Positions 35,547 through 56,316 of a stretch of DNA of 64,000 nucleotides are shown here, in pieces. Within the stretch, counting starts at the first letter, position 1. The number at the start of each line of letters is the position of its first letter. Made by a program: the position numbers and the translations under genes. The notes beneath the pieces are model-generated. The model ran no database searches. It was not told the DNA's origin and saw nothing but the letters and a program-made list of their open reading frames with translations. The stretch is from Burkholderiales bacterium. Lineage in GTDB: Bacteria; Pseudomonadota; Gammaproteobacteria; Burkholderiales; JAHFRG01. Location: the NCBI GenBank assembly GCA_036522275.1, contig DATDGC010000073.1, forward strand, positions 1,021-65,020, written 5' to 3'.

Positions 35547-36950
35547 TCACCTCATTCGGTCTTGGTACTGCTCGCGGAAGGTGCGGCCTTCAGGCGCAGG
35601 CATATCGCGCCCATCGCTCCAGCCGTGCCCTCCCGGAAGATGATGCAGAAGTTTTTCCTCGCCCGCCACCCCTTTCAGGATGCGCGCGGTAATGCGCGAG
35701 AGCGCAGCATAAATTCCGGGATGCAGAGCCGCCCACGCCCAGATTTTCAACGCCAGCCGTTCCTGCCAAGGGCGCAGGCCTTGGTCCGTCTGCTGCTCGC
35801 GCAGATTGCGCATCAAATCGGGAAGCGGTATTTTCACCGGGCACACCACCGCGCACTCGCCGCACAGGGTGGAAGCATTGGGCAAATCCAGCGCGTTTTC
35901 CAGTCCGGCATAGACCGGCGTCAACACCGAGCCCATCGGCCCGGGATACACCCAGCCGTAGGCGTGGCCGCCGATATTCTGATACACCGGGCAGTGGTTC
36001 ATGCACGCGCCGCAGCGGATGCAGCGCAGCATGCTTTGCATCGCCCCGCCCAGCAATTTGGTTCGTCCCGCATCCACCAGCACGATGTGGAAATGTTCCG
36101 GTCCATCGCTTTCATCCCTGCCTTTAACGCCGCTATTAATGGAAACGTAATTGGTAATCGCCTGCCCGGTGGCGGAACGTGGCAAAAGACGCAGTAAGGT
36201 CGCGATATCCTCCAGCGTCGGCACCACTTTCTCGATGCCGGTAATCGCCACATGCACGCGCGGCATAGTGGTCACCATGCGGCCGTTGGCTTCATTCGTG
36301 ACGATGAGTGTAGACCCGGTTTCTGCAATCAAAAAATTGGCGCCGGTAATGCCCATGTCTGCGGAAAGAAAATGTGGTCGCAGTACCTCGCGCGCTTCGC
36401 GGCAGAGTTCCGGTATGCCGGTCTTGCGCGCTTTCTTGTGCTTCTGTTCGAACAGATCCGAAACTTCGTCCTTGGTCTTGTGCACCACCGGGGCGACGAT
36501 GTGCGAGGGCGGCTCATGCGCAAGCTGCAGGATGTATTCGCCGAGATCGGTTTCCACCACTTCGATCCCCGCCGCTTCCAGCGCCTCGTTGAGCGCGCAC
36601 TCTTCGCTCACCATGGATTTTGATTTGACTGCTTTGCGCACGCCATGCAGTTCGGCGATTTCACAGATGATGCGATTCACATCTTGCGCAGTTTCCGCCC
36701 AGTGCACTACCGCGCCGCGCGCAGCTGCGTTTTTTTCAAACTGCTCGAGATAAAGGTCCAGGTCACGGATGACGCGGTCGCGTATGCCGGCAGCGGCATC
36801 ACGGTACGCCTCGAAATTTTCCAGTTCGAGAATGGCATCGGCGCGGGCGTGAACAAACTTGCCTTGCGCCTTGGCCAGCGCCTGCTGTAGTCGCGTATCG
36901 CGCAGTTTTTCGCCGGCGCGCGCCTTGAAGTACATGGATGTGATTTGCAC
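35547..36950 (-). CDS. lutB: iron-sulfur lactate utilisation protein B
   Basis: 467 aa. CIRCGACMNHCPVY and CGECAVVCPVKIP ferredoxin motifs plus a LUD domain. Confidence 0.9.
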   Translation of the reverse strand: MQITSMYFKARAGEKLRDTRLQQALAKAQGKFVHARADAILELENFEAYRDAAAGIRDRVIRDLDLYLEQFEKNAAARGAVVHWAETAQDVNRIICEIAELHGVRKAVKSKSMVSEECALNEALEAAGIEVVETDLGEYILQLAHEPPSHIVAPVVHKTKDEVSDLFEQKHKKARKTGIPELCREAREVLRPHFLSADMGITGANFLIAETGSTLIVTNEANGRMVTTMPRVHVAITGIEKVVPTLEDIATLLRLLPRSATGQAITNYVSINSGVKGRDESDGPEHFHIVLVDAGRTKLLGGAMQSMLRCIRCGACMNHCPVYQNIGGHAYGWVYPGPMGSVLTPVYAGLENALDLPNASTLCGECAVVCPVKIPLPDLMRNLREQQTDQGLRPWQERLALKIWAWAALHPGIYAALSRITARILKGVAGEEKLLHHLPGGHGWSDGRDMPAPEGRTFREQYQDRMR

Positions 36951-36958
36951 TAAACGCC

Positions 36959-37681
36959 CTATTCCCCGGCCAATAATTCGGCCACATGCAGCACGCGCGT
37001 CTTATTATCACCGCGGCGGCGCAACCTGCCTTCGATATTCAGCATGCAACCCAGATCGCCCAGCACCACAGCAGCAGCGCCACTGGCTTGAATGGCGTTG
37101 CATTTGTTGTCCGCCATGCGTGTGGAAATGTCGCCAAATTTGACCGAAAAAGTTCCGCCGAAACCGCAGCAGGTTTCACAATCCTGCATTTCTTTCAGCT
37201 GCAATCCGGGCGTTTTGGCGAGCAGCAGGCGCGGCTGGCTTTTTACTCCCAACTCGCGCAAGCCCGAACAGGAATCGTGGTAAGTGATGCTGCCATGGAA
37301 GCTGCCCGGAACGTTTTGCAGTTTCGCCACATTGACCAGAAAATCGGTAAGCTCGTAAGTGCGTCGTGCGAGCTCGCTGATTTTTCCAAGCTGTTGCGGC
37401 TCATCCTGGAACAATCGGGGATAGTGTTCGCGTATCATGCCGGCGCACGAGCCGGAAGGCACCACCACGTAATCGCAGCCGGCGAATTCGTGCAGCACTT
37501 TGAGCGCCAGCGCTTTCGCGGGAGTGCGATCGCCGGAATTATAACCAGGCTGGCCGCAACAGGTCTGCGTACCCGGGACTATCACTTCGCAACCCGAGGC
37601 CTCCAGGAGCTGCAGCGCGGCAAAACCGATGCGTGGGCGCATCAAATCCACAAGGCAGGTCACGAAAAGCCCGACACGCAT
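36959..37681 (-). CDS. lutA: (Fe-S)-binding lactate utilisation protein A (CCG domains)
   Basis: 240 aa. MRVGLFVTCLVD and TCCGQPGYNSGD / TCCGFGG CCG motifs. Confidence 0.9.
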   Translation of the reverse strand: MRVGLFVTCLVDLMRPRIGFAALQLLEASGCEVIVPGTQTCCGQPGYNSGDRTPAKALALKVLHEFAGCDYVVVPSGSCAGMIREHYPRLFQDEPQQLGKISELARRTYELTDFLVNVAKLQNVPGSFHGSITYHDSCSGLRELGVKSQPRLLLAKTPGLQLKEMQDCETCCGFGGTFSVKFGDISTRMADNKCNAIQASGAAAVVLGDLGCMLNIEGRLRRRGDNKTRVLHVAELLAGE

Positions 37682-37763
37682 CGCACGTCCTGTTAATGAT
37701 GAACCAATCCTGATAAATCATAACATAACACCTGCGGCGTTCCGGGCCTTGCCCAACCCAAAA

Positions 37764-38741
37764 TCAGCCGCCGCCAGACAGATAGTGCACCGCGAAGAGT
37801 CGCTGCGCGTCGGTCCATACGCGCAGCGGCTCGAATCCTGCTTGCAGCGCCAATTGCTGAAACTCCCCTACCGAATATTTATAGGAATTCTCGGTATGAA
37901 TCGTCTCCCCGGCAATGAAATCAAAGCGCCTGCCTTGTATCATGACCTGCTGCGCGACCAGGCTTTCCAGGTGCATTTCAATACGCCCTTCTCCTGCATT
38001 GTAAAAAGCGCGATGGCGAAAGTTCTCCAGCATGAAATCGCCTTTGAGTTCGCGGTTGATGCGTGCCAGCAAATTCAAATTGAATTCGGCGGTGACGCCC
38101 CGGCTGTCGTTGTAAGCGGCGTCGAGTTGCGCCTGCGGTTTTTTTAAATCCACTCCCACCAACATTCCGCCACCCGGCCCCACCACCTGCAAGGCGTGTT
38201 TCAAGAACACGGCTGTTTCCTCTTTGGTGAAATTACCGATTGTGGAACCGGGGAAATAAATCGCCCTGCGCTTGAGTCCGGGCACAACGCATTCGGGCAG
38301 CGCGATGGGCTCGGAATAATCGGCGCACACCGCGATCACCTGCATTCCCGGAAATGCTTGCGCGAGTTCCCGTGACGAAACGCGCAGTTGCTCGCAAGCG
38401 ATGTCAATGGGCATGTAAGCTGGCGGATGCAAGCGCTCAAGCAGGATGCGCGTTTTGCGGCTGGTGCCGTTGCCGTATTCAATCAGCAAGCAACCGGCAC
38501 CCAAAAGCTGCGCCATTTCCGCAGCAAACCGCTGCATCATGGCGGTTTCAGTACGTGTCAAATAGTACTCGGGAAGTTCGCAGATGGCGCCGAACAGCTC
38601 GCAGCCGCGGCGATCGTAAAAAAACTTGGCGGGAATTTGTTTCTGGGGCTTGGCCAGTCCGGCCAGAACTTCGTTGAGAAAACTTTGTTGCGCGGAAAGA
38701 AGATTATAATACCGGACCGGCCGATCCCCATCCGAACTCAT
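37764..38741 (-). CDS. EgtD-family SAM-dependent amino-acid N-alpha-methyltransferase (histidine betaine synthase-like)
   Basis: The ORF track starts at GTG 38747 and an ATG follows at 38741. IPAKFFYDRRGCELFGAICELPEYYLTRTE and GNGTSRKTRILL match EgtD-type proteins. Confidence 0.7.
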   Translation of the reverse strand: MSSDGDRPVRYYNLLSAQQSFLNEVLAGLAKPQKQIPAKFFYDRRGCELFGAICELPEYYLTRTETAMMQRFAAEMAQLLGAGCLLIEYGNGTSRKTRILLERLHPPAYMPIDIACEQLRVSSRELAQAFPGMQVIAVCADYSEPIALPECVVPGLKRRAIYFPGSTIGNFTKEETAVFLKHALQVVGPGGGMLVGVDLKKPQAQLDAAYNDSRGVTAEFNLNLLARINRELKGDFMLENFRHRAFYNAGEGRIEMHLESLVAQQVMIQGRRFDFIAGETIHTENSYKYSVGEFQQLALQAGFEPLRVWTDAQRLFAVHYLSGGG

Positions 38742-38748
38742 TGCCACT

Positions 38749-40161: not shown

Positions 40162-40474
40162 TTACAGATAAGGTCCACACATAAGGCTTGGGTTGTGCCC
40201 TTGGAGGGAGGTTTCCTCTTCGAAAAAACCCGCAATCAGGCGCGCACCGCTTCCACCTGGTGTGAGCTGTTTCCTTCCTTGTTGCGCGGCTTCTTCCTGC
40301 TGCTGCAGCGCCCACATGTGCGCGTAGGCACCCTGATTTTCCAAAAGCTCGTGATGGGTGTCACTCTCGATGATGCGACCGTGGTCCATCACCAGAATCT
40401 GTTCGGCATCAACCATGGTGGACAGTCGGTGGGTGATGGTAAGCGTGGTTGCGCCTGAGTTCCATTTGAATTAA
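40162..40474 (-). pseudogene. displaced 3' fragment of an Atm1-like ABC transporter gene
   Basis: Encodes ...DAEQILVMDHGRIIESDTHHELLENQGAYAHMWALQQQEEA. About 40287-40474 aligns at roughly 90% identity (by eye, one 14-nt indel) with 50445-50646 of the intact gene. Walker motifs and the TMD are absent. Confidence 0.75.
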
Positions 40475-40497: not shown

Positions 40498-40530
40498 CCC
40501 GATTGCGAAGCGCGCGGGCGGTGGGGAACG

Positions 40531-41631
40531 CTACCGCGCCTGAGCACCGCTGTGTCGCGCCGGGCTGAGCAGCGCGGCCACCGCGTCCAGAAACCGCTGT
40601 ATGTCCGCGGCGTCGACGACGCCCATGGTCGAGACGCGGAAGATGGACGCCGCCAGCTTGCCCTGGCCGGCGTAGATGACGAAGCCCCGCAGTTTGAGGC
40701 CGTCGTGCAGCGCGGCGTAGTCCAGGCCGTCGGGCAGGTGATAGGCCCGCAGGACCACAGAGCGCTCGCCTTCCCGCAAGAGCGGCACCACACCGAGACG
40801 GACGAGGCCCTCTTCCACCGCCTCGGCAAGACGGCGGTAACATTCGTGGCGTATGCGCCATCCGCCCTGATCCTCGAACTCGCGCAGTGCTTCGCGCAGC
40901 GCGTAGAAGATGGGCACGGCGGGCGTGAAGGCGGTGTCGCGGGCGTCCTGGGCGCGGCAATGCCGTGCCAGATCCAGGTACACGCTGCGGCCGCCGTCCC
41001 CGTCGGGCAGCGCGTCCCGGCGCAAAATCACGAAGCTCACGCCCGGCGCGCCGTGCAGGCATTTGTTGGCGCTGGCGACGCAGGCCGTCACGCCCCAGGC
41101 GTCGAATTCCAGCGCTTCCGCACCGAAGCTGCTCACCGCATCCACCAGCAGCGCAATGTTACGCTCCCGGCACAGGCGGCCCACCGCTGCGACATCGTTC
41201 AGCCGCCCGGTGGTGGTTTCGTGCTGCACGACGGCCACGTGGGTAAAGCCCGGTTGCGCGTCCAGATGCCGGGCCAGCGCGTCCAGGTCCACTGGCGTGC
41301 CCCACGCCTGACGCGCTACCGCGTGGGCGATGCCGTGGCAGCCGGCGATATCCGCCAGACGCGCACCGTAGACGCCGTTCTCGATCACCAGCAGCCTTCC
41401 GTCCCGCGGCACCAGGCTCACGAGCATGGCTTCCACCGCCGCCGTGCCGGAACCGGACACCAGCACCGGCGCCCAGCTCTCCGGCGGCAGCGGATAGACT
41501 TCCAGCAGCCGGCGGCGAATCTCGTCCTGCAGCTCGCCGAATTCCCGCTCCCGGTGGCACAGGTCGGGCAGCGTCAGCGCCACGCGCACCCGTTCGGTCA
41601 GGTTCACGGGCCCGGGGTTGAGAAGAATCAT
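40531..41631 (-). CDS. phnW: 2-aminoethylphosphonate:pyruvate aminotransferase
   Basis: ORF-track 40531..41646 trimmed to MILLNPGPV, giving an ATGA overlap with ppd. Class-V aminotransferase with the PLP-lysine region ASANKCLHGAPGVSF, as in PhnW/AepZ. Confidence 0.85.
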   Translation of the reverse strand: MILLNPGPVNLTERVRVALTLPDLCHREREFGELQDEIRRRLLEVYPLPPESWAPVLVSGSGTAAVEAMLVSLVPRDGRLLVIENGVYGARLADIAGCHGIAHAVARQAWGTPVDLDALARHLDAQPGFTHVAVVQHETTTGRLNDVAAVGRLCRERNIALLVDAVSSFGAEALEFDAWGVTACVASANKCLHGAPGVSFVILRRDALPDGDGGRSVYLDLARHCRAQDARDTAFTPAVPIFYALREALREFEDQGGWRIRHECYRRLAEAVEEGLVRLGVVPLLREGERSVVLRAYHLPDGLDYAALHDGLKLRGFVIYAGQGKLAASIFRVSTMGVVDAADIQRFLDAVAALLSPARHSGAQAR

Positions 41632-42812
41632 GATGTCTTTGCGCATGGGTGGGCGGACAGCGACGGGCTGCCGATATGGTTCATGAGCCGGCGTAGCACG
41701 TCGGCGGGAGCCAGTCCCGGCCGGGGCGGTGTGGCCGCCACCCCCGGCGCGATCTTGAGGTGGACAAACACCGGTCCGATGCCGTTTCGCCCCTGTAGCG
41801 CCTCGTCGAGCAGCGACAGGTTGTCGCCCTCCGAAACTTCCGCGTAGCCGCAGGCGGCAGCAATGGCGGCAAACGAGATGTCCCGCGCCACGGTGGCTTG
41901 GCCGCCGGTGGAATCGTGCACCTCGTTGTCCAGCAGCACGTGCAGCAGGTTCCGCGGACGGTAAGCGCCGATGGTGGCCAGGTTGCCCATACGCATGAGC
42001 GCCGCGCCGTCGCCGTCCAGCACTACCACCCGCAGGTCCGGACGCGTGAGAGCCAGGCCCAGCCCGAACGAGGACGCGCAGCCCATGGAACCTACCATGT
42101 AGAGCTGATGAGCGTGGTCCCCCAGGGCGTACAGCTCGCGGCCGGTGTAGCCAGTGGTGGCGATCACCACGTTGTTGCGCTTCGGCACGAGCCGGGCGAC
42201 GCGCTCCAGCGCTTCGATGCGGCTCGGCCGCACCGCCGGTGGTGAGCGCCAGGCGCTACGCGGGGCCGCCCGCGGGGAGCGCGGCGGCGCTTCCACCGGC
42301 GCGGGCTTGCACGGCGCGAACCGGCCTTTGCGCACCAACAGAGCGTACGGGCGCTCGCGCTCGCCGATCGAGGCGTCCGCCTGCGCCAGCGCTTGGGCCA
42401 GCGCCTGGGGCGAGTCCGGCAGGTATGCCCAGGGGATCTCCATGATGTCCAGCAGCGCCGGGGTGATACGCCCCATCAGCGCGTGCTGCGGCTCATCGGC
42501 TACTCCCGGCTCGCCGCGCACGGTGACCAGCAGCAGCACCGGGATGCGAAACACATGGGTGAGCGAAGTCAGCGGGCTCACCGCGTTGCCGAGGCCCGAA
42601 TTCTGCATCAGCGCGATGCTGCGCCGGCCGCCCACCCAGGCACCGGCGGCGGCGGCCACCGCATCACCTTCGTTGGCCGAGGACACGTAGGTAAGCGCCG
42701 GGTCGGTGTTTACGTGGTTGATCAACCCAGTGAAAAACGAGCACGGCAACCCGGCGTACCAGCGATAACCCAGTGCCGCCGCCTGCAGCGCGAACTCGGC
42801 CGGCTCGATCAC
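41628..42812 (-). CDS. ppd: phosphonopyruvate decarboxylase (ThDP-dependent)
   Basis: ORF-track 41628..43163 trimmed to the Val118 codon (GTG), giving a GTGA overlap with the pepM stop. The N-terminus is [27 protein letters not shown], and [13 protein letters not shown]...LDN is the ThDP motif. Confidence 0.85.
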
Positions 42813-44470
42813 GAAAGCGGCCCTTCGCACTCGCCCGCGCTGCTTAGCCCGTGGGCGAAATCGACGGCGCGGCGCAGATCGTCCGGGTTGTTCACGTCCA
42901 GCCAGTGGCCGTTCACGTACAGCACCTGCACGGGGTGCCCACTGTCGATCAGATAATTGAGCAGGTCCGGCAACCCGAGCTGCGTGAAGTCGGGCCGCTT
43001 GCCCAGCGCGTCCAGCGCCTGCAGTAGCCACCGGCGGCCGGCGCCCTGTACCCGCAGCATGCCGATCCACTGCCCGCTCGCCACGCCGGGCCCGGGCCGG
43101 GCGTTCACCCGTAGCAGCCGCACCTCCTGGCGGAACAAGGAGCGGTCGTCGGGGACCGAGCAATAGGCCAGGTCGCGCTGGCGCTCCGCCGGCACCGGCG
43201 AGGAATCCACCACCACCGCCACCTCTGCCGGGGTTTCCAGCAAGTCGCGCAGTATGTAGCTGCGAAACAGCAGGTCACCGTAGCTCACCACCGTATCCTT
43301 GCCGATGGCATCGCGGGCGCAGGCGAGGGAGGCAAGTTCGCCGCTCTCGGCATGGCCGCGGTTGTGCACGATCTTGATCCCCACCATGTCGATGGCCTGC
43401 GCCTTGTAGCCGGCGACCACGGTGATGTTGTTGACGGACTGCCGCTTGAACTCGTCCACCAGTCTCCGCAACAGCGGCCGTCCCGCCACCGGCAGCATGG
43501 CCTTGGGACGGTCCTCGGTCAGCGTGTCCATACCCTCGCCGCGACTGGCAGCCAGCACCAGCGCCGACAGGTCACGACCGGCTGCGGCGTACTGGCGCTC
43601 CGCCGCCAGCAGTTCGTCCGCCGACTGCAGCCGGAAAATCTCGTTGACCGGCGCGATCCGGTCCTCCACGTTCACCAGCGTCTGGGTGGTGTGGATCTCG
43701 CGGGTGAGCTCCTGCATGGCTGACACAGCCGCGCGCAGCGTGTGGTTGGCCCAGATGACGAGGCGGATGCCTGCGGCGCGGAACACGTCGGTGGGGGTGC
43801 TGTAGTACTTGGTGGGAACGATGACCAGCGGCGAGCGCCCGGCCCACTCCCTGGAGAAGGCAAGAATTTCATCGGCACTGCTTTTCTTGCTGTGGATCAG
43901 AATAGCGTCGGCGCCGGCTTGGCGGTACGCCTCGGCGCGGCGCAGGGCCTCGTCCAGGCCCCAGCCCGCGATCAGCGCCTCCACCCGCGCGACGATGACG
44001 AAATCCGGATCCTTCTGGCTGTCCTTTCCGGCGCGGATCTTGCCCTGAAACTCGGCGACGTCGGCCAGCGGTTGGCGATGGCCGTTGATGAAGCTGTTGG
44101 TTTTGGGGAACAGCTTGTCCTCGATGCACACGCCGGCGATGCCCCGCTGCTCCAGCTTCTGCACCAGGCGGCGCATGTTGTTGAAGTCGCCGTAGCCAGT
44201 GTCGCCGTCGATGAGGATGGGAATGCGGCTGGCATCGGACATGAACTCCAGCATGTCCACCACCTGGGTCCAGCTCGCCTCGTTGTTGTCGCGCACCCCG
44301 AACTGGGCGGAGAGGGTGAGCCCGCTGGCCCAGATGCCCTTGAAGCCGGCCTCCTCGACGATGCGGGCGCTGATGCCGTTATGCGCCTCCATGAGGAACT
44401 CCAGCTCGGAAGAGTTGAGAAGCGCGCGCAGGGCAGCGGCTTTGGTGGGGTGGGGTGGGGGTCTGTCCAT
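42809..44470 (-). CDS. pepM: phosphoenolpyruvate mutase fused to a C-terminal nucleotidyltransferase (PntC/LicC-like)
   Basis: ORF-track 42809..44818 trimmed to Met117 ([18 protein letters not shown]). [10 protein letters not shown] matches the PepM-diagnostic EDKX5NS motif, and DGDTGYG is present. The C-terminal 250 aa or so has an NTP-transferase fold ([11 protein letters not shown]...[12 protein letters not shown]). Confidence 0.9.
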
Positions 44471-44499
44471 AAATGGTTCCTTGAAGAAGAGCGCGGTGT

Positions 44500-45252
44500 T
44501 TACCACTGCAATCGGGGGAGTATCTCCAGGCGGGCGCGCTCGACGTCGTCGGGAAAGTCGATCTCTATCCAGGGCAGGCCGGTGACATCTTCTACTCCGA
44601 ACTGGCGCGGCCCGGCCTCCAGCATCAGGTCCCGCAAGGCCTCTTCGTGGGGCTCCTGACCGCGGCCCGTTTCCAGGTAGACTGAGGCCCGCGCCACCAG
44701 CGCGCGGCAGGTTTGCCTGGACAGGCGAAAGAAGCCTACCGACTCGCCGCAGACATCGAATGCGAGATTCGGCGCGACCTGCTTCCTGAATTCGACGATG
44801 CGTCCGTCGCGAACGCACACCTTCACCGGCTCGTCGCCGGGCTCGAAGTTCCGGTCCAGCAGCAGGCAGTCGGGCTGCCGGGAGTCCACCAGCGCACGCA
44901 GTATACGCTCATCGTAAAGCAAGTCGGCGTCCATGAGCAGCGTGTCCCGTCCCGTCAGCAGCGGTGCGCGGGCGTGCCACACGGTGACGATGCTGCCGAG
45001 CTGATAATCCGGATTGAACACGGTATCAGCGGCCAGCGCCTCCGGCAGCCGCGCCAGCTCTGCACGCACCTGATCCGCCGCGTAGCCGACCGCCACCCAC
45101 ACGTCAGCCACGCCGCACTCGCGCAACAGGTGGAGATGGCGTTCCAGCAGGCTCCGCCCGCCGAAGCGCAGCAGGCATTTCGGAACGGCGCTGGACTGCG
45201 CATCCTGCGCCAGCCGCGTACCCCGGCCGGCTGCGAGTATCACCGCCTGCAT
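44500..45252 (-). CDS. stand-alone LicC/MobA-like nucleotidyltransferase
   Basis: ORF-track 44500..45285 trimmed to [14 protein letters not shown] (G-loop) followed by PKCLL. Confidence 0.75.
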
Positions 45253-45294
45253 GGCACTCACCGTCGGGCGCGCGCGCCCGGCCAACGTGCCCGC

Positions 45295-46062
45295 TCAGAC
45301 ACGGAACACGTACTGCTTGCCGGGGTCGCGTTCGCAGTCGGGCGGGTAGCTCGCGCGCTTGTCGGCGTAGTAGCGCGCGCGCTGATCCCCTTCCGACAGT
45401 CTGTTGTAGGTGACGTAGAGCACCCGTCGCGGCCGGTCGCTCAGGTTGGCGTCCGAGCGATGGGGCGTGAACGAATCGAAGAACGCCACGTCGCCGGGAG
45501 CGGTCTCGTAGGGCACAAAGTCCATGCTCGCGGTCACTTCGTCCGGCAGCGGCGCCCAGCTCGGGCCAAGCTGCCCCTCCCGGTGGCGCCCGGCCACCAG
45601 CTCCAGGCAGCCGTTGGCCCGGGTCGCGGCGTCGATGCTGATGAGCGCGGTAATGTACAGGCTGGCGTAACGGTCCCATCCGGCCTGGACATCCTGGTGG
45701 GGTGTGAAGCCACCGCCGCCCGGCAGCTTGAAGTTGATCTTGTCCTTAAATATGACCGCCGGCTCGCCGAATAACTGGGCCATCGCGTCCCTCAGTCCCG
45801 GGCCGGTGAGCAGACGGTCCAGGCCGGCGTGGTACGGGCAGTAGTTTTCGATCCGGTTAAGCAGCCGCCGCCCCGGCTCCACGCTGCTCTGCTCAAAATA
45901 CATCATGTACTTGCCCGGCACCTCGGGATAGGTCGCAACCTCGTCGACCCAGGCCTTAATGCGCGCCATAGCGTCGCCTGGGTACAGGCCGCGAACGATC
46001 ACGAAACCGTCGCGTTGAAACGATTTGATCTGGTCTTGGGACAAGGGCTGGTTCATGGTCAT
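45295..46062 (-). CDS. phytanoyl-CoA dioxygenase (PhyH)-family Fe(II)/2OG oxygenase
   Basis: ORF-track 45295..46845 trimmed to MTMNQPLSQDQIKSFQRDGFVIV (255 aa). HQD plus a distal TPHRS His form the facial-triad pattern. Confidence 0.8.
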   Translation of the reverse strand: MTMNQPLSQDQIKSFQRDGFVIVRGLYPGDAMARIKAWVDEVATYPEVPGKYMMYFEQSSVEPGRRLLNRIENYCPYHAGLDRLLTGPGLRDAMAQLFGEPAVIFKDKINFKLPGGGGFTPHQDVQAGWDRYASLYITALISIDAATRANGCLELVAGRHREGQLGPSWAPLPDEVTASMDFVPYETAPGDVAFFDSFTPHRSDANLSDRPRRVLYVTYNRLSEGDQRARYYADKRASYPPDCERDPGKQYVFRV

Positions 46063-46091
46063 CCGTCGGTTCAATGCATCCGCATCGCGCA

Positions 46092-46703
46092 TCAACTCGC
46101 CGCTCCGGTTCGGGCGCAATTGCGCAGCAGTTTCCAGTAGAAAAACACCGCAAACACCGGTGCGCCCACTGCCGCCACCGACAGGAGCTCCTCCGCCAGC
46201 CCGAACCAGATCAGGGTCGGCACGGCGAGTATTCCGTCGTCGGGATCGAAGCCAGCTGCTCCACCAAGCTCCGCCGCGCGTGCGCCCCGTAGCGCCTCCA
46301 GACGCAGCGTGAGAAAAAGAATCGCGGCAACGGCAAGGCCGGCCAGCACGCCCATCGGGATCGCCCGCCATTCCAGGGACCCGCCCGAGAGCCCGACGCC
46401 TAGCCCGATGAATACCAGCGTGTTGCACAGGCCGTCGGTCACCAGGTCGTACTTGTGGCCGAACACGCTCCTCTTTCCGGACTGGCGCGCCAGCTCGCCA
46501 TCGGCCCGATCGAGCAGCATGGACAGCACGAACACCCCTGCCCCCCAGGCCAGCGCTGCCGGGCTGCCGACGGCTAATATGGCGCTGGCTCCGAGACCGG
46601 TGAGCAGGCGCAGGGTGGTCAGGTGATTCGGCGCCACCGGAGTGTGGACCAGCGGCCGCACGCCGACCCGCACCAGGCGGTGGATCCAGGTGTTGTGACT
46701 CAC
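46092..46703 (-). CDS. CDP-alcohol phosphatidyltransferase-family membrane protein (copy 1)
   Basis: 203 aa. DRADGELARQSGKRSVFGHKYDLVTD fits D-x2-DG-x2-AR-x8-G-x3-D-x3-D. Multi-pass hydrophobic protein. Confidence 0.8.
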   Translation of the reverse strand: MSHNTWIHRLVRVGVRPLVHTPVAPNHLTTLRLLTGLGASAILAVGSPAALAWGAGVFVLSMLLDRADGELARQSGKRSVFGHKYDLVTDGLCNTLVFIGLGVGLSGGSLEWRAIPMGVLAGLAVAAILFLTLRLEALRGARAAELGGAAGFDPDDGILAVPTLIWFGLAEELLSVAAVGAPVFAVFFYWKLLRNCARTGAAS

Positions 46704-47086
46704 GACGCGGACTCGATGCGGGCTGTACCTGCCCGTCGCAAGGCCCTCGAGCGTGCCAGAGGATACCAGAAATCGGGGTGGGCGCCGGTCTTCTTGAGAT
46801 CAGGTCGGTTCTGTTTGTGCCGCGTCTCGAGCAGCGACGTGGCATTCGATGTGGATATGGCTCGTTCTACCTTCAACTGTGTGCGGCCACGCTGGCCCCG
46901 GTCCTGTATTAGGGTTTTCCCTTAGATTCTACCAGAAACTCGAAGTGCGGCACCGATCAGTGCTGGCCCGGCGTCGCGTGAGGTTACACTAAAGCACGAA
47001 TCGATCGTTCCAGGGGAGACTGCGGATGAGAAGCTTCACGCTGGCGCTGCTGGCGGGGGCCGACGATGCGCCCGTGGCCAAGGGGC

Positions 47087-47296
47087 TTACTTCGGGCGCA
47101 GGTCGGGAAAGAAGGCGACCAACTGCATCGCGAGTCCCATGTCCCCCGCGATCTTCAATCGCCCGCAGAGCAACGCCGACATGCCGCTCATCCCCTCTAG
47201 GATCGCGATGCAATCCTCCCCCGCCATCGACAGCGTGACGTTCGCCAGTGACACATGAGCGGGCAGATCATGTGCGGCTCCATTCAGCAAGAATGC
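47087..47296 (-). pseudogene. probable SCP2 (sterol-carrier/lipid-binding) domain remnant
   Basis: Only the C-terminal half of the domain is recognisable (ANVTLSMAGEDCIAILEGMSGMSALLCGRLKIAGDMGLAMQLVAFF). The upstream part of ORF 47087..47431 overlaps the GT9 3' end and does not look like SCP2. Confidence 0.35.
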
Positions 47297-48419
47297 GCTC
47301 CACGCGCTCGATGACCATCTGTGACGTGACGCCTTGCATGCAGGCATGATCGTGCGGACATTGGGACAACCGTCGGTAGTTGCATGGCGAACAGGGTAAC
47401 TCCAATCGCACAATCGAATCGGGACGGCCATACGGCCCGATGCAGACCGGGTCAGTCGGACCGAAGATGCTCACGACCGGTCTGTTCAACGCCGCGGCCA
47501 GATGCATAGGTCCGGAATCGTTGGTGACGCAGATTGCTGCGCGCTGAATAAGCGCCGCAAGATGGGCCGGTGTCGTTTGTCCGGCAAGGTCACGGGCTCC
47601 CGGACAGGTTGACGCAACTTTCTGACACAACTGCTGCTCGCGCGGCGATCCAGCCAGTGCAACGGCATAGCCTTGATTCAGAAAATACCGGGCGACGTCC
47701 TTATAGCCATCCAGTCGCCAGTGCTTGGTTTCCCAGACTGTGCCCGGCATCAGTAGCGCCAACGGTTTGCCGAGAAGATCGTGTTGACCGAGCAATTGTT
47801 CGACGTCCGGCAAAGCATCAGGCGGCAAATAGATGCGAAAGTCAGGCGGCGAATCATCGAGGCCAAGTATCGGTCCGATCCACAAGTAGCGATCGGCGGC
47901 ATGCACAGCCAGCGTCGGGATTGGAATGCGATGGGTGTAGGCAAGCCATGAGCCTTCACGCGAACCAGCCCAGCCTCGGTCCGGGACGTTTTTGTCACCG
48001 CCCCGCTCGTAACCGCTATCTTCGCGTCGCACAGGTCCACGAAAACCGATGCGTACAGACGCGCCGCTGGCCATGACGAACAGCGCCGAGCGAAGCTGGC
48101 CGTGCATATCAATCACGAGGTCATAATGCGCGCGACGGATTTGTCTCAGCAGGCGAAACAATCCGGTGGTGGCATCCCAACTGCGGCCAAAGTGCGCAAA
48201 TTCGTGCCGGTCGAACAAAATAATGTTGGTTAAGGCGGGATGGCAGCGTATCAGCTCGGCGTTTTGCGGCGTAAGAAACCAATCGATCTGCGCCCTTGGG
48301 TAACGCGCGCGTAATTTGACGAGCAACGGGATGGTGTGGATCACGTCCCCCAAGGCTGAAGGTTTGATCAACAGAATCCGTTCGAACTCTATTGTGCGAA
48401 GCGGTGACGCCAATTCCAA
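47268..48419 (-). CDS. glycosyltransferase family 9 (heptosyltransferase-like)
   Basis: 383 aa. ILLIKPSALGDVIHTIPLL N-terminus and NDSGPMHLAAAL C-terminal motif. Confidence 0.8.
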   Translation of the reverse strand: MELASPLRTIEFERILLIKPSALGDVIHTIPLLVKLRARYPRAQIDWFLTPQNAELIRCHPALTNIILFDRHEFAHFGRSWDATTGLFRLLRQIRRAHYDLVIDMHGQLRSALFVMASGASVRIGFRGPVRREDSGYERGGDKNVPDRGWAGSREGSWLAYTHRIPIPTLAVHAADRYLWIGPILGLDDSPPDFRIYLPPDALPDVEQLLGQHDLLGKPLALLMPGTVWETKHWRLDGYKDVARYFLNQGYAVALAGSPREQQLCQKVASTCPGARDLAGQTTPAHLAALIQRAAICVTNDSGPMHLAAALNRPVVSIFGPTDPVCIGPYGRPDSIVRLELPCSPCNYRRLSQCPHDHACMQGVTSQMVIERVERILAEWSRT

Positions 48420-49136
48420 TCAGCTCCGGAATGCACCGGTAAGTTTTTTCGTCCAAGCGGAAAACCGGTGTCGCCTGGTTTCACGGTCCACCACGCTCTG
48501 GGTGGTGACCCAATTGAATTGAATCACGCGTCGGTCGCCGACGAACGGTTTATGGCCGTGATACGAATTGTCGCTGCGCAGGAACGCCAGTAGCGTTCCT
48601 TCGACTGGCGGCACTTCAACGATGACATCATCAAGGTTGTCGGAACGCAGTAGCCGCAGCCGACCGCCGGATTCCTCCCAAGCCGGATTCATGTAGATAA
48701 GCACCGTGATGATCTTGGTCTCAGTATCCGTGTGGATGCGGCCGTCCTTCGGACCGCAGCGGCCGCGGACTGTGATCATGGTCGGTCGTCCCGACAGATC
48801 AATGCCAAGCTTTTCTTCAAAGGCCGCGCGCATTTCGGGGCCGCGAAGCTCATTCAGGAATTCACCGAAGGAGGGGCCGTACTGATGCTCTCCGACAGGG
48901 AAGCTTCCCGGCTGTGTGATTTTCGGGTAGTCCGCGTTGATCGCGGCGCAGGTGTCGGTATTCATAAAGCCCGGGACGATCAAGTAATGAAACGGCTCTT
49001 TGATGAGCGGCGTATTCCGAAAACGCTGCAAATTAATGCTCACGATGCGAGTCTTTCGCCGTACGGCCTGTGGTTGGTTCCCAAGGTGTCGATCATCACT
49101 TAATTTCAGTCTAAGGAGTTTTTTTACTGGACGCAA
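48420..49136 (-). CDS. 2OG-Fe(II) oxygenase-superfamily protein
   Basis: 238 aa. HTD ... YHGHKP His-x-Asp...His pattern. Its stop directly abuts the GT9 start. The true start is uncertain. Confidence 0.65.
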   Translation of the reverse strand: MRPVKKLLRLKLSDDRHLGNQPQAVRRKTRIVSINLQRFRNTPLIKEPFHYLIVPGFMNTDTCAAINADYPKITQPGSFPVGEHQYGPSFGEFLNELRGPEMRAAFEEKLGIDLSGRPTMITVRGRCGPKDGRIHTDTETKIITVLIYMNPAWEESGGRLRLLRSDNLDDVIVEVPPVEGTLLAFLRSDNSYHGHKPFVGDRRVIQFNWVTTQSVVDRETRRHRFSAWTKKLTGAFRS

Positions 49137-49217
49137 CGGCGATTTGTCTGGGAAACATACCGGCGCCGATGCGTGTATTTCTCAGCACCGTGGTACGCGG
49201 GGCGCGCTGCCCTGCGC

Positions 49218-49400
49218 TCAGGCGATGTCGGGAACCAGGTGGTAGGTGAGCGGCTGGCTGGCGTGCACCGGCCAAGCCTCGGGCCCCGTGGCGGACTTCG
49301 TTGCATCGCCCGCGGCGCCCATAGGCCCAGGTGCTCGAGGATGCGTCGGATGACTGCCGGATCCTCGATCAGCGCAATGACGCGCATCGGCTCCTTGCAC
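49218..49400 (-). mobile_element. IS91-family transposase C-terminal remnant (5'-truncated, frameshifted)
   Basis: KCKEPMRVIALIEDPAVIRRILEHLGLWAPRA in one frame and ...QPLTYHLVPDIA* in another resemble the conserved IS91/ISCR C-terminus (from my recollection of the family). The reading frame is cut by the TAA inside the 14-bp inverted repeat. Confidence 0.5.
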
Positions 49401-49462: not shown

Positions 49463-50119
49463 CTATCTCGCGTCCCGATCGGAGGTTCCGATCTCCGCGG
49501 CGAGCGCCTTACGCTGGACGATGGCACTCAATCTTTGCCAGGTGATCACGGCGAACACCGGTCCACCAATCGATGCACCTATCAAGAGCGGCATGCTCAA
49601 GCCGATCCATACCGCCGGCGCAAATAGGTACAGCACGTCGTCGAAGTCGAAGCCAAGAACGCCGGCGTAGGCCTTGTCGCCAGTCGCCGCGATCTTCTCC
49701 AATCGCTCGGAAAGAACCGAAGCAATCGCGACCGTAGAACCCGCGATGACGCCGAGTGCGATCGAAGCATGCCCGAGAAAATTGTCGCGAAGGCCTATCC
49801 CTATCGCGACGAAGAATAGGGCGTTGATGGCGACGTCGCTGTAATAGTCGTAGAGATGCCCACCCGGGGAAGACATCCCACCGATGCGCGCGAGCTCGCC
49901 ATCGGCCCGGTCAAGAAAACACGACCCCAACCATAGGAGACCACCCCATAAATCCCAGGCCGGATCGCCGATCATGAACGCGGTGCAGGACGCAATGCCG
50001 GTGACGACGCGCGCGGTCGTCAGATCGTTGGGCGTGACGCCCGTACCGATCAGGGGGCGAACGGCGACGCGAGCAAGACGGTGGGTCCACGACGTGAACG
50101 GCTCCGTGATACGAAGCAT
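49463..50119 (-). CDS. CDP-alcohol phosphatidyltransferase-family membrane protein (copy 2)
   Basis: ORF-track 49463..50311 trimmed to Met65 (MLRITEPFTSWTHRLARVAVRPL, parallel to copy 1 MSHNTWIHRLVRVGVRPL). DRADGELARIGGMSSPGGHLYDYYSD is the family motif. Confidence 0.75.
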   Translation of the reverse strand: MLRITEPFTSWTHRLARVAVRPLIGTGVTPNDLTTARVVTGIASCTAFMIGDPAWDLWGGLLWLGSCFLDRADGELARIGGMSSPGGHLYDYYSDVAINALFFVAIGIGLRDNFLGHASIALGVIAGSTVAIASVLSERLEKIAATGDKAYAGVLGFDFDDVLYLFAPAVWIGLSMPLLIGASIGGPVFAVITWQRLSAIVQRKALAAEIGTSDRDAR

Positions 50120-50394: not shown

Positions 50395-52221
50395 TTATCT
50401 GACTGCCACCGCTAACTCGCGCTTGATCTCCGTTCCGACGCGCTCGGCTTCTTCCTGCTGCTGCAGCGCCCACATGTGCGCGTAGACGCCCTGATTTTCC
50501 AAAAGCTCGCGATGGGTGCCGCGCTCGATGATGCGACCGTGGTCCATCACCAGAATCTGGTCGGCATCGACGATGGTGGACAGCCGGTGGGCGATGGTAA
50601 GCGTGGTGCGGTTGGCGGCGATGCGCCTGAGTTCCGCCTGAATCGCTTTTTCCGATTTCGAATCGAGCGCTGAAGTCGCTTCATCAAAAATCAGTATTCG
50701 CGGATTTTTCAAGATCGCCCGGGCAATCGCCACACGCTGCTTCTCGCCGCCGGAAAGCTTCAAGCCACGCTCGCCCACCATGGAGTCGTAACCGTCCGGC
50801 AGCGTCACGATGAAGTCATGAATGTGCGCCGATTTCGCCGCCTCGATGACTTCTTCGCGGGAAGCAGTGGGGCAACCGTAATTGATGTTGTAAAAAATGG
50901 TGTCGTTGAACAGCACCGTGTCTTGCGGAACGATGCCAATCACCGCACGCAGGGATTTTTGCGTCACTTCGCGGATGTCCTGGCCGTTCACCGTGATGCG
51001 GCCTCGCCCGACATCGTAGAAGCGGAACAGCAGCCGCGCCAGAGTGGACTTGCCCGAGCCGCTGTGACCCACTACTGCAACCGTCTTCCCCGGCGCAATC
51101 TCGAAACTCACATCAAACAGGATCTGACGCTTCGGCTCATAATTGAAATTCACGCTGTCGAAACACACCGCCGCCTTCCCTGCCACAAGATCATGCGCGC
51201 CAGGCCGGTCCTGGATATCCAGGTTTTCTTCCAGCAGGTTGAACATTTTCTCCATATCGGCGAGCGAATGGCGGATCTCGCGGTACACAAAACCCAGGAA
51301 GTTGAGCGGCAGATACAGCTGCAGCATGAAGGCGTTCACCAGCACCAGGTCGCCCAATGTCATCGTGCCGCTGACCACGCCGTGCGCCGCCAGCACCATT
51401 AGGAGCGTCATGCCCACTGCGATGATGGCGGATTGCCCGGCGTTCAATCCTGCCAACGAAGTCTGGTTGAGCACCGCCGCTTTTTCCCACACCTGCAGGC
51501 CTTCGTCGTAGCGCCGTGCTTCCCATTCTTCGTTGCCGAAATATTTTACCGTCTCATAATTGAGCAGGCTGTCTATGGCGCGGGTGTTGGCCTTGGAGTC
51601 CGAGTCATTCATGGTGCGGCGGAACACCATGCGCCATTCCGTCACCATCAGGGTAAACACGATGTAAATGGCCAGCGTGACGAAAGTCACCACCGCAAAC
51701 CACACGTCGTAATTGATGAGCAGGATTGCCGCCACCAGCGCGATTTCCACAAAGGTGGGCAAAATGTTGAACAGCATGAACTGCAGCAGGAAGGAAATGC
51801 CGCGGCTGCCGCGCTCGATGTCGCGCGACACCCCGCCGGTCTGCCGGTCCAGATGGAAGCGCAGGGAAAGCAAATGCAAATGGCTGAAGACTTTGAGTGC
51901 CACGCGGCGGATCGCACGTTGTGTCACCTTGGCGAACACCGCGTCACGCAGCTCGCCAAACAGCGTGGCGGAAAAGCGCAGCAAGCCATAACCTGCGAGC
52001 AGCGCGATGGGCAATGCCAGCAGCGCGTCTTTCAAACTCAACGAATCAACGATGCCTTTAAGCACCAACGGCACCGCGACATTGGCGACTTTGGCAAAGA
52101 CCAGCAAGGTGAGGGCCAGCGCTACACGCCCCCTGAATTCCCATAGATAAGGGACCAGGGTCTTGATGGTATTCCAATCTTTGCGGTTCTTCGGCGGCTT
52201 GCCGAAATGGGTGATGCGCAT
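50395..52221 (-). CDS. Atm1/HMT1-type ABC exporter (fused TMD-NBD)
   Basis: 608 aa. Walker A GHSGSGKST, signature LSGGEKQR, Walker B ILIFDEATSALD. Confidence 0.9.
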   Translation of the reverse strand: MRITHFGKPPKNRKDWNTIKTLVPYLWEFRGRVALALTLLVFAKVANVAVPLVLKGIVDSLSLKDALLALPIALLAGYGLLRFSATLFGELRDAVFAKVTQRAIRRVALKVFSHLHLLSLRFHLDRQTGGVSRDIERGSRGISFLLQFMLFNILPTFVEIALVAAILLINYDVWFAVVTFVTLAIYIVFTLMVTEWRMVFRRTMNDSDSKANTRAIDSLLNYETVKYFGNEEWEARRYDEGLQVWEKAAVLNQTSLAGLNAGQSAIIAVGMTLLMVLAAHGVVSGTMTLGDLVLVNAFMLQLYLPLNFLGFVYREIRHSLADMEKMFNLLEENLDIQDRPGAHDLVAGKAAVCFDSVNFNYEPKRQILFDVSFEIAPGKTVAVVGHSGSGKSTLARLLFRFYDVGRGRITVNGQDIREVTQKSLRAVIGIVPQDTVLFNDTIFYNINYGCPTASREEVIEAAKSAHIHDFIVTLPDGYDSMVGERGLKLSGGEKQRVAIARAILKNPRILIFDEATSALDSKSEKAIQAELRRIAANRTTLTIAHRLSTIVDADQILVMDHGRIIERGTHRELLENQGVYAHMWALQQQEEAERVGTEIKRELAVAVR

Positions 52222-52348: not shown

Positions 52349-52626
52349 AAGGAACCTCTGATTGAGTCCATCGTGTGCGCGACGGTGTGCAATCCGGGCG
52401 CAGGGCGCGACGCGAGGAGTGTCGTTTGGTGGAGGCCAAACAAGCGACGAACAACAAAGCCATGTGCACGGATTGCCCCGTCCCTTTGGGTTGCGGCGAC
52501 TGGGCAGACATCTGCGGTGTTGCTCGGGCTTGCGTTATGGCTTGATAGCGCTGCGCCCTCGCGCCTAGCATCTGGCCGCCCATCGTCCACAACGCGTCAC
52601 GCGCGGGACTCAATCAGAGGTTCCTT
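52349..52626. repeat. 278-bp TIR-bounded dispersed element, copy C
   Basis: AAGGAACCTCTGATTGAGTCC ... GGACTCAATCAGAGGTTCCTT form a perfect stem of 19-21 bp. The right TIR contains the cls-like stop codon. Confidence 0.75.
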
Positions 52627-53786: not shown

Positions 53787-53852
53787 TGCACCACAAAATT
53801 AAGCTGGGAGATTTGCCGCGGAATAAACTAGGCTGCGCGCGCCGGCAGCGCA

Positions 53853-54605: not shown

Positions 54606-54677
54606 GATTGGGCGCAGCCCGTAGTCAGCCTGAGGAATGGTTGAACGCCGCGGCAACTCCCGCGCCGCGCGTAGAGC

Positions 54678-55869: not shown

Positions 55870-56316
55870 TCAATGCAGGATAAATCTTGGCAGTGCCAAA
55901 ATCGCGTCGCGGTTGCTCCAGGAAAAGCATTTTTGCGCCGCTTCCTGATACGGCAACCAGGCAAAACCTAGATGCTCGCGCGGTGCAACCGCCACTGGAA
56001 GCGGCTTCGGTACCAGCAAACCAAAGACATGCTCGGTATTTTTCGTCACTCGCGGAGGATAGCGGTGCCGCCACTCAGGAAAAATTTTATATTGGTTCTC
56101 GACGTTCCAATCCGTCAGCGCATACTTCCGCGCATCCAGCCTGGTCTCTTCCAGTACTTCACGAATCGCGGTTTGCTCCAAAGTTTCACCCTCATTCAAA
56201 CTGCCGGTCACGGATTGCCAGTAGTCGGGATGGTCGGCGCGTTCAAGTAACAGCACCTGTAGATCGGGGGTATGAACTATTACCAGGACTGAAACAGGTA
56301 TCTTGTAAGTCTTCAC
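55870..56316 (-). CDS. nudB: NUDIX hydrolase, dihydroneopterin-triphosphate diphosphatase-like
   Basis: 148 aa. Nudix box GSLNEGETLEQTAIREVLEETRL. aspS-nudB neighbourhood as in enterobacteria. The GTG start overlaps the upstream ORF stop (GTGA). Confidence 0.75.
   Translation of the reverse strand: MKTYKIPVSVLVIVHTPDLQVLLLERADHPDYWQSVTGSLNEGETLEQTAIREVLEETRLDARKYALTDWNVENQYKIFPEWRHRYPPRVTKNTEHVFGLLVPKPLPVAVAPREHLGFAWLPYQEAAQKCFSWSNRDAILALPRFILH

Follow-up and report, generated by a model that had tools for sequence, protein, structure and literature searches.

A horizontally acquired six-gene cassette for the synthesis and the predicted activation and lipid transfer of a phosphonate head group in a Burkholderiales bacterium

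A 64,000-nucleotide stretch of DNA from a Burkholderiales bacterium (contig DATDGC010000073.1 of assembly GCA_036522275.1, positions 1,021 to 65,020; hereafter the window, meaning this whole stretch) carries at 40531-46703, on the minus strand, six intact co-directional open reading frames (ORFs), as read from the ORF list and the sequence. Our analysis moderately favours a pathway in which this cassette would make 2-aminoethylphosphonate (AEP), hydroxylate it, activate it with cytidine monophosphate (CMP) and attach the phosphonate head group to a membrane lipid. The cluster type is already known from genomes, the cassette being a variant of the Group 1 phosphonolipid, or Burkholderiales_CDP-OH, pepM neighbourhood. 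Its features are as follows.

40510..46746, minus strand: limits of the six-gene high-GC cassette, the segment held in common with a related locus (L001) in an unrelated context
46092..46703, minus strand: cytidine diphosphate (CDP)-alcohol phosphotransferase of clade A (defined below), 203 amino acids (aa), first cassette gene (PF01066, 49.9 bits)
45295..46092, minus strand: PhyH-family Fe(II)/2-oxoglutarate (2OG) dioxygenase, 265 aa, PhnY*-like, predicted phosphonate C1-hydroxylase (PF05721, 86 bits)
44500..45252, minus strand: stand-alone LicC/PntC-type cytidylyltransferase, 250 aa, predicted CMP-AEP or CMP-hydroxyAEP synthase (PF12804)
42809..44470, minus strand: phosphoenolpyruvate (PEP) mutase, PepM, with a divergent C-terminal nucleotidyltransferase domain, 553 aa (TIGR02320; PF13714 and PF12804)
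41628..42812, minus strand: phosphonopyruvate decarboxylase, Ppd, 394 aa, GTG start (TIGR03297; PF02775/PF02776)
40531..41631, minus strand: AEP:pyruvate aminotransferase, 366 aa, alternative start at 41646 (TIGR03301 PhnW-AepZ; PF00266)

The stop codon of the CDP-alcohol phosphotransferase (TGA, 46094-46092) overlaps the ATG of the dioxygenase (46092-46090) by 1 nt, spacers of 42 and 29 nt separate the dioxygenase from the stand-alone nucleotidyltransferase and the latter from the PepM fusion, and the PepM fusion stop forms a GTGA overlap with the Ppd start (42812-42809). The Ppd stop forms an ATGA overlap (41631-41628) with the second ATG of the aminotransferase gene, the overlap being 19 nt if the first ATG (41646) is used; the TIGR03301 profile starts at the second Met. 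An initial annotation of this DNA had proposed six co-directional minus-strand genes at these coordinates, the GTGA and ATGA overlaps and a function for each gene. All six ORFs are present, both overlaps can be read directly (ATGA only with the second ATG as the aminotransferase start) and the gene assignments stand, every named domain having been recovered by Pfam, with hidden Markov models (HMMs), solved structures and comparative genomics in agreement.

PepM, Ppd and the aminotransferase almost certainly constitute the AEP route proposed in that annotation, since all three exceed the curated NCBIfam equivalog cut-offs. PepM scored 398 bits against TIGR02320 PEP mutase (cut-off 320); Ppd, which contains TPP_enzyme_N and TPP_enzyme_C domains, scored 430 bits against TIGR03297 (cut-off 313); and the aminotransferase, with its pyridoxal phosphate lysine K190 in a SANK motif, scored 389 bits against TIGR03301 (cut-off 361). 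The diagnostic PEP mutase motif EDKX5NS, which had been called earlier, lies at PepM residues 117-126, and the protein matches the Mytilus PEP mutase structure (1m1b) with an E value of 1e-131. PepM is not nearer to methylisocitrate lyase or carboxy-PEP mutase, as its 398 bits compare with 145 for prpB and 98 for the CPEP mutase model, and its score against the phosphonopyruvate hydrolase model (263 bits) is under the cut-off of that family (374). By homology the mutase would convert PEP to phosphonopyruvate, a very secure assignment, and Ppd would then turn phosphonopyruvate into phosphonoacetaldehyde, pulling the unfavourable mutase equilibrium, after which the class-V aminotransferase would render AEP; the assignments of these last two steps are secure.

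The Burkholderiales_CDP-OH gene-cluster families to which the cassette was matched by comparison with known pepM neighbourhoods were described by Li and Horsman, 2022 (PMC8942020), where they are equated with the Group 1 phosphonolipids of Yu et al., 2013. They account for 318 of 882 RefSeq ppm neighbourhoods (36%), have a seven-gene core of a Ppm-PntC fusion, Ppd, an AEP aminotransferase (AEPT), an alpha-ketoglutarate/Fe(II) oxygenase, a second PntC and two phospholipid-associated genes, and are predicted to make a 1-hydroxy-AEP phosphonolipid (PMC8942020). The same cluster, including hpnL, has been drawn with a CMP/diacylglycerol pathway for Nostoc (PMC5987646). On plasmid pBRH01 of Mycetohabitans rhizoxinica (RBRH_RS14475-14505) the gene order is CDP-alcohol (CDP-OH) phosphotransferase, 2OG oxygenase, LPG_synthase_TM, cytidylyltransferase, aepX fusion, aepY and AEPT, and our PepM has 67% pairwise identity to the PepM of Burkholderia and of Mycetohabitans. 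We compiled a census of 91 loci, 80 of them from a scan of species-representative genomes and the rest from metagenome contigs, plasmid records and the window. A CDP-OH transferase is present in 24 of the 91, namely the window and 23 related PepM-carrying loci, and 16 of these 23 also have an LPG_synthase_TM gene; a CDP-OH transferase together with a hydroxylase and usually a flippase-like protein thus defines a sub-class of the PepM clade. The same six genes in the same order were found in more than 10 independent contigs (Beta-, Gamma- and Alphaproteobacteria), a recurrence which places the gene set far beyond chance.

The PhyH dioxygenase would probably hydroxylate the phosphonate to give 1-hydroxy-AEP. 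Its best NCBIfam match, over the full length, is the methylphosphonate hydroxylase PhnY* (NF052437, E 9e-56), and at 189 bits against an equivalog cut-off of 500 it is a homologue and not an equivalog of that family. The protein carries the iron triad H132-x-D134 and H211 as well as R222, and its PhyH fold was matched to solved structures. The family assignment is secure; hydroxylation would occur at C1 to give 1-hydroxy-2-AEP, on a presumed substrate and with a presumed timing. A PhyH or HalD-like oxygenase is present in 19 of the 23 related PepM-carrying loci with a CDP-OH transferase, and the other four either end at a contig boundary or have a Rieske oxygenase in its stead. This swapping of unrelated oxygenase families at the same position suggests that hydroxylation is integral to the CDP-OH branch.

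Activation with CMP is very likely the work of the stand-alone nucleotidyltransferase. The best match of this protein in the PDB is the PntC-AEPT of Treponema denticola (6pd1, Tde-PntC; E 6e-12, residues 2-247), its best NCBIfam match is the IPCT half of IPCT-DIPPS, and it contains the motifs LAAGRGTRL (6-14), K25, DAD (108-110) and EID (230-232). With cytidine triphosphate this LicC/PntC-type enzyme would yield CMP-AEP or CMP-hydroxyAEP, as its similarity to Tde-PntC and its intact catalytic motifs suggest. The nucleotidyltransferase domain fused to PepM aligns with the N-terminal half of LicC alone (E 8e-10) and has no match to 6pd1 at E<1e-3, and profile-profile comparison (hhalign) relates the fused and stand-alone families with 99.6% probability. 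Alignment of 85 fused domains and 79 stand-alone homologues from the related loci revealed a fused-domain signature, LAA[ST]RGxx[LM]..LT..RPK / YGDLLFR / VVDS / GHWLDVN, that recurs across the 85 domains with conservative substitutions and a few deviations. In the fused-domain consensus the Arg of the GxGTR motif of the stand-alone/LicC type gives way to variable residues (S-R-G-x-x), the first Asp of DAD, at the position of the Tde-PntC AEP-amine ligand E104, becomes Tyr (Y-G-D), and the E-I-D metal site becomes D-V-N, with the second Asp replaced. To judge from this alignment, the fused domain is a distinct and strongly conserved subfamily with an altered active site, and because these active-site positions differ the two nucleotidyltransferases are not redundant copies. 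Its conservation argues that the fused domain is functional and its altered active site disfavours plain AEP cytidylylation, so that it probably does something else. That it might be a locus-specific, decayed pseudo-domain was considered and rejected, as the altered motifs are strongly conserved in the 85 aligned domains.

Two statements of the initial annotation have to be revised here. It had found the presence of two nucleotidyltransferases unexplained by the simple pathway, yet a stand-alone homologue adjoins the PepM fusion in 84 of the 91 related loci, and a second PntC belongs to the published core (PMC8942020); two nucleotidyltransferases are the norm for this PepM clade. It had also credited PepM-fused PntC/LicC-like enzymes with an established ability to form CMP-AEP. 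The clusters of Rice et al., 2019 do have both a Ppm-fused and a separate nucleotidyltransferase, but CMP-AEP formation was shown for the separate enzymes Ari1348 and Tde1415 and not for Ppm-fused domains (PMC6697681), and it is the stand-alone enzyme of our cassette, rather than the fused domain, that by its motifs resembles the characterised CMP-AEP synthase.

For the last step we lean towards transfer to the alcohol of a membrane lipid. The cassette CDP-alcohol phosphotransferase has a complete motif (D65-x2-D-G-x2-A-R-x8-G-x3-D-x3-D90), and its AlphaFold model (mean confidence, pLDDT, 85.7) has a six-helix membrane fold whose nearest solved relatives are AF2299, the phosphatidylinositol-phosphate (PIP) synthases and IPCT-DIPPS (TMq 0.65-0.78), with 0.72-0.78 for AF2299; CEPT1/CHPT1, PgsA and PssA are structurally more distant. 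The enzyme would move the phosphonyl group from the CMP conjugate to a membrane lipid hydroxyl, releasing CMP and rendering a phosphonolipid; the transferase class is secure, and the presumed acceptor is most simply diacylglycerol, a choice that we regard as tentative. There is precedent for CMP-AEP formation by PntC (PMC6697681), and the relatives supply a lipid context in the form of an HpnL flippase-like protein, HpnM/MlaC, HpnN/MMPL and PagL. The order of AEP synthesis, nucleotidyl activation and CDP-alcohol-type transfer that had been envisaged at the outset fits the HMMs, the solved structures and the comparative genomics.

Several points weigh against this assignment. The nearest relatives of the transferase, the archaetidylinositol-phosphate (AIP), PIP and DIPP synthases, use a phosphorylated-alcohol acceptor and mostly a CDP-lipid donor, and by analogy the roles of donor and acceptor could be reversed. 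The proposed pathway leaves the fused nucleotidyltransferase domain without an explained role, and a published core member, HpnL/LPG_synthase_TM, was not found when the 64-kb window was searched by tblastn with three HpnL sequences. The product of the cluster family is chemically uncharacterised (PMC8942020), and no characterised product of this cluster type was found in the literature from 2020 to 2026. A promoter and terminator scan gave nothing beyond shuffled expectation and an Rfam scan of 39.9-50.5 kb at E<=1 gave zero matches; with no promoter, terminator or riboswitch detected, expression is unproven.

The cassette was acquired horizontally, because a 93% identical copy lies in a different context, relatives have empty sites and its guanine-plus-cytosine (GC) content contrasts with that of its surroundings. 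The closest sequences to the window are soil Burkholderiales metagenome-assembled genomes (MAGs) and metagenome contigs (best matches 91-96% identity). The segment 40510-46746 aligns with L001 9955-16224 at 92.9% nucleotide identity over 6270 bp with unrelated flanks, the homology beginning approximately 45 nt before the first start codon and stopping approximately 25 nt past the last stop; L001-L003 share just this segment with the window, in another genomic context. In L001 shc-hpnG-hpnA-ispG...glutaredoxin lies upstream of the cassette, and after the cassette come an SdmA-like Rieske gene, fragments of HpnL and the second CDP-OH transferase of that locus; further contexts are found in L008 and L089. 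The GC content is 67.9% in 40510-46746 and 57.7% in the remaining window, and it is 61-68% in the cassette compared to 51-59% in the flanks in every host examined, while the GC content at third codon positions is 80-88% in the six genes and 63-75% in their neighbours. The high-GC foreign segment recognised in the initial annotation is thus borne out. Its limits of 40531-46703 are right for the six genes and incomplete for the insertion, which extends over 10.2 kb and includes a second CDP-alcohol phosphotransferase. The insertion and its boundaries have the following features.

40282..40449, minus strand: remnant 3' part of an MsbA-like ABC gene, one repeat arm, 92.8% identical to 50442-50607
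47087..49387, minus strand: insertion passengers, namely an SCP2-like C-terminal fragment, GT9, 2OG-FeII_Oxy_3 and an 87-aa ORF without a family
47268-48419, minus strand: GT9 heptosyltransferase-family gene (Pfam)
48420-49136, minus strand: 2OG-FeII_Oxy_3 oxygenase gene (Pfam)
49463..50119, minus strand: second CDP-alcohol phosphotransferase, clade B, 218 aa, inside the insertion (PF01066, 41.5 bits; motif D70..D95)
50440..50607, minus strand: other direct-repeat arm, inside the intact MsbA-like ABC gene (50395-52221), with a single-copy match in L095

Empty sites occur in L095 and L096 (81-92% nucleotide identity to the window lineage), where NadA-EEP-ClsB-ABC is followed directly by PBP7-EgtD-Lut, and occupied sites in L006 (88% nucleotide identity) and L097 (92-97%), the latter with an additional Rieske gene. 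In L095 the 3' part of the ABC gene (9568-9735) is present once, and this single segment aligns with window 50607-50440 as well as with window 40449-40282; the insertion of approximately 10.16 kb lies between 168-bp direct repeats that are 92.8% identical to each other. The MsbA-like ABC gene (PF00664 and PF00005; 405 bits against TIGR02203 MsbA, under the cut-off of 602) is intact on one side with a new 15-codon tail, and its native C-terminal codons persist downstream of the remnant. Such a repeat-bounded insert is the signature of Campbell-type homologous integration of a circle carrying a fragment of the ABC gene. The genes annotated at 35.5-55.8 kb encode no integrase or transposase domain, and a tRNA scan of the window found none. 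The passenger genes are absent from the empty-site loci L095 and L096 and present in L097; the GT9 gene, the 2OG oxygenase and the SCP2 fragment were not counted as pathway genes, as they are not beside the cassette in other contexts. An apparent disruption of pepM/ppd in L097 was rejected as a pseudogene, the break being a 100-N scaffold gap.

Other features of the window were noted around the insertion. Upstream of the cassette, 46730-46858 (minus strand) weakly resembles, over 43 aa (E 3e-7), the N-terminus of an SdmA-like Rieske oxygenase, and this part of the 380-nt upstream spacer may be the scar of a deletion; beyond this stretch, no HalD-like oxygenase or SdmA-like Rieske gene was found in the window. 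An EEP-family protein and a ClsB-type cardiolipin synthase (375 bits against NF008427, cut-off 281) are encoded as a pair immediately upstream of the MsbA-like gene (52614-54656, minus strand), in a native lipid-metabolism neighbourhood that the empty-site relatives have too. On the other side, an EgtD histidine methyltransferase (TIGR03438, 393 bits) lies beside LutA/LutB-like lactate-utilisation genes (35547-38747, minus strand). A second, independent small insertion of approximately 1.3 kb and 47% GC (56316-57685) is absent from L095, which has approximately 70 bp there, and encodes a DpnI-like methyl-directed restriction endonuclease (56865-57635; PF06044 and PF17726) between aspS and the NUDIX/NadA block. 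The sole other similarity between the window and L001 is a small conserved ORF of approximately 77-86 aa without a Pfam family (62260-62487, plus strand; L001 5550-5810; 78% aa and 81% nucleotide identity), which in L001 lies between ispG and hemA. Dips in GC content to approximately 50% at 21000-23000 and 62000-63000 may mark other foreign segments.

The second transferase lies 2.8 kb upstream of the cassette in the same 10.2-kb insertion. A neighbour-joining tree of the CDP-OH transferases from all loci resolved three clades: clade A with the cassette enzyme; clade B with the product of 49463-50119, the second genes of L001 (59% identity to the window protein) and L089, and L007; and clade C with Burkholderiaceae, Nevskia, cyanobacteria and gammaproteobacterial MAGs. 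The window, L001 and L089 are three independent contexts in which clade A is joined by clade B, and because of this co-occurrence the clade-B paralogue probably performs a second, related transfer. Relatives 77-92% identical to the clade-B enzyme directly follow hpnL, as in L091, where the order is hpnI-hpnJ-hpnK-hpnL-CDP-OH transferase with the hpn genes above their NCBIfam cut-offs.

These hopanoid genes raise the question of the acceptor. What the canonical core lists as LPG_synthase_TM is in fact HpnL: the proteins of Mycetohabitans and L088 reach 330-345 bits with TIGR03476, whose cut-off is 196, and L086, L088 and L091 all have an HpnL above this cut-off. Strictly assigned hpn genes lie within 10 kb in 12 of the 23 CDP-OH loci compared to 9 of the 67 loci without a CDP-OH transferase. 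Five gammaproteobacterial MAGs have the order SQS-(SHC)-HpnG-HpnN-CDPOH-HpnA-HpnL-2OG-NTase-PepM-Ppd-AEPT...HpnM (NTase, nucleotidyltransferase), Calothrix has CDPOH-2OG-NTase-PepM-Ppd-AEPT-HpnJ-HpnK-HpnI and L088 has PagL-cassette-HpnL-HpnM-HpnN. Interleaving of phosphonate and hopanoid genes (SQS, SHC, HpnA, G, I, J, K, L, M, N) was observed in L040, L053, L056, L072, L079, L016, L017, L022, L074 and L088 with Cyanobacteria represented as well as Gamma- and Betaproteobacteria. The CDP-OH transferases repeatedly have an SdmA-like (sterol C4-demethylase-like) Rieske oxygenase as a neighbour.

The transferase might therefore place AEP or hydroxy-AEP on a hydroxyl of bacteriohopanepolyol to give a phosphono-hopanoid instead of a glycerolipid. 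In favour of such an acceptor are the identity of the second lipid gene of the canonical core as HpnL, the interleaving seen in gammaproteobacterial MAGs and, with HpnI/J/K, in cyanobacteria, the excess of hpn neighbours at CDP-OH loci, the position of the nearest cassette copy (L001) beside shc-hpnG-hpnA, the placement of the closest clade-B relatives directly after hpnIJKL, and the SdmA-like Rieske oxygenase beside the cassette in L001, L089 and L097. A terpene-phosphonate has so far been speculated about in the literature (PMC8776678; PMC8942020), and a phosphono-hopanoid has never been reported. The 64-kb window was searched for SQS, SHC, HpnA, G, I, J, K, M and N and contains none of them, nor HpnL; the cassette is a self-contained unit in at least four genomic contexts, of which two lack neighbouring hpn genes; and the linkage could instead reflect co-regulation of outer-membrane lipids. 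We consider a hopanoid acceptor rather unlikely on this evidence. A broader form of the idea, in which the transferases of the family make phosphono-hopanoids with HpnL as flippase or partner, the two cytidylyltransferases and two transferases serve two successive transfers and the cassette is a portable head-group module, is likewise a speculative one that we rate a shade lower.

Reversed polarity in the transfer is another unlikely option. CDP-diacylglycerol would then be the donor and the C1 hydroxyl of 1-hydroxy-AEP the acceptor, as in PIP and phosphatidylglycerophosphate synthases, to give a phosphatidyl-hydroxyAEP with a free phosphonate, with the nucleotidyltransferases serving another step. 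This would agree with the best NCBIfam and structural neighbours of the transferase (AIP, PIP and DIPP synthases and AF2299), which use phosphate-bearing alcohol acceptors, and with the greater structural distance of the CEPT1/CHPT1 type, which uses a soluble CDP-alcohol donor and a diacylglycerol acceptor; it would also directly explain the oxygenase that accompanies the CDP-OH transferase in 19 of 23 loci, if the hydroxyl were the attachment point. However, it would leave the product of both cytidylyltransferases without a consumer, although the PntC type is present in 84 of the 91 loci and its homologues make CMP-AEP, and the structural similarity is at the level of the family (17-24% identity) and includes a neighbour, DIPPS, that uses a soluble CDP-alcohol donor.

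Attachment of the head group to a lipopolysaccharide core or other surface polysaccharide, by LicC/LicD logic and with the GT9 gene taking part, is improbable. Phosphonoglycans are well documented (PMC6697681). The GT9 and 2OG oxygenase genes do lie between the two CDP-OH transferase genes in the same insertion, and the 67 of 91 PepM-nucleotidyltransferase loci without a CDP-OH transferase presumably use other transferases. Against this, those genes and the SCP2 fragment do not accompany the cassette elsewhere, and the cassette has no LicD-type or sulfatase-type transferase. To our knowledge, the characterised CDP-alcohol phosphotransferases act on lipids or small polyol phosphates and never on glycans. 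Oxidative degradation of AEP by PhnW and a PhnY*-type enzyme, which could be entertained because TIGR03301 covers both directions and PhnY* is best known from AEP and methylphosphonate catabolism, is hardly credible given that PEP mutase and Ppd are strictly biosynthetic and both above their equivalog cut-offs, that the genes annotated at 35.5-55.8 kb include no PhnZ, PhnX, PhnA or phosphonate transporter, and that two cytidylyltransferases and a membrane transferase are encoded by the six genes, which travel together.

The family to which the cassette belongs is among the most abundant bacterial phosphonate neighbourhoods and includes Burkholderia pseudomallei (PMC8942020). The locus would not surprise a phosphonate specialist, but comparison with its relatives sharpens two leads, the hopanoid linkage and the non-redundancy of the nucleotidyltransferases. 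At active-site positions its Ppm-fused nucleotidyltransferase domain is seen to depart from the characterised PntC enzymes, and together with its relatives the locus strengthens the genomic link between phosphonate head-group synthesis and hopanoid loci, a link that for the window itself is indirect. A phosphono-hopanoid, if true, would be an unreported class of membrane lipid. At 6.2 kb the cassette is a natural minimal version of such clusters, self-contained and transferred between genomes, and is therefore convenient for heterologous expression and product identification.

Among known systems, the closest are the clusters of Mycetohabitans and Burkholderia cenocepacia, with which the cassette shares, in a single orientation, a CDP-alcohol phosphotransferase, an Fe/2OG oxygenase, a second, stand-alone cytidylyltransferase directly upstream of ppm, the Ppm-nucleotidyltransferase fusion, Ppd and AEPT, the protein identities to Mycetohabitans being 67% for PepM, 54% for Ppd, 57% for AEPT and 55% for the nucleotidyltransferase. 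The Burkholderiaceae oxygenase is a HalD-like 2OG enzyme, whereas the PhyH/PhnY*-type enzyme of the cassette shows no detectable similarity to it and is a non-orthologous replacement at the same position. The Burkholderiaceae CDP-OH transferase falls in another clade (41% identity to the cassette enzyme), and the Mycetohabitans core has HpnL/LPG_synthase_TM, a gene that the cassette is without while a second CDP-OH paralogue is present. The cassette also differs from the Burkholderiales_CDP-OH clusters in being a mobile high-GC insert.

With the PhnY* hydroxylases, which convert AEP to (R)-1-hydroxy-2-AEP or, in Gimesia, hydroxylate methylphosphonate, the cassette PhyH protein shares the fold and the HxD...H triad, but its context is biosynthetic and without a PhnZ partner, and it may act on free AEP, on CMP-AEP or on the completed lipid. 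Compared to Tde-PntC (6pd1) and LicC (1jyk), the stand-alone nucleotidyltransferase retains GxGTR, PK, DxD and ExD in a full-length alignment, keeps a Glu matching E196 of Tde-PntC despite low overall sequence identity, and has an Asp at the equivalent of E104, like LicC. The pair formed by this enzyme and the CDP-OH transferase mirrors IPCT and DIPPS of the IPCT-DIPPS protein. AF2299, the PIP synthases (Mycobacterium tuberculosis PgsA1 and that of Renibacterium) and IPCT-DIPPS have the six-helix fold and the D1xxD2G..AR..G..D3xxxD4 motif in common with the cassette transferase, at 17-24% identity, the cassette enzyme having no cytoplasmic domain. The second transferase of the window carries this motif as well.

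The eukaryotic Kennedy-type phosphonolipid route of Tetrahymena combines CMP-AEP with diacylglycerol. The logic proposed for the cassette is the same, in that a cytidylyl-activated phosphonate would be passed to a lipid alcohol by a CDP-alcohol phosphotransferase, although the CEPT/EPT-type enzymes of that route are more distant structural neighbours of the cassette transferase. The sphingophosphonolipid of Bacteriovorax stolpii (Watanabe et al., 2001) carries 1-hydroxy-2-aminoethylphosphonate, the head group predicted for this cassette, and in the account given in PMC8942020 is the only bacterial lipid known with it; the AEPT family of its cluster (GCF 761) is more distant and its lipid is a sphingolipid, whereas no sphingolipid genes were seen at the cassette.

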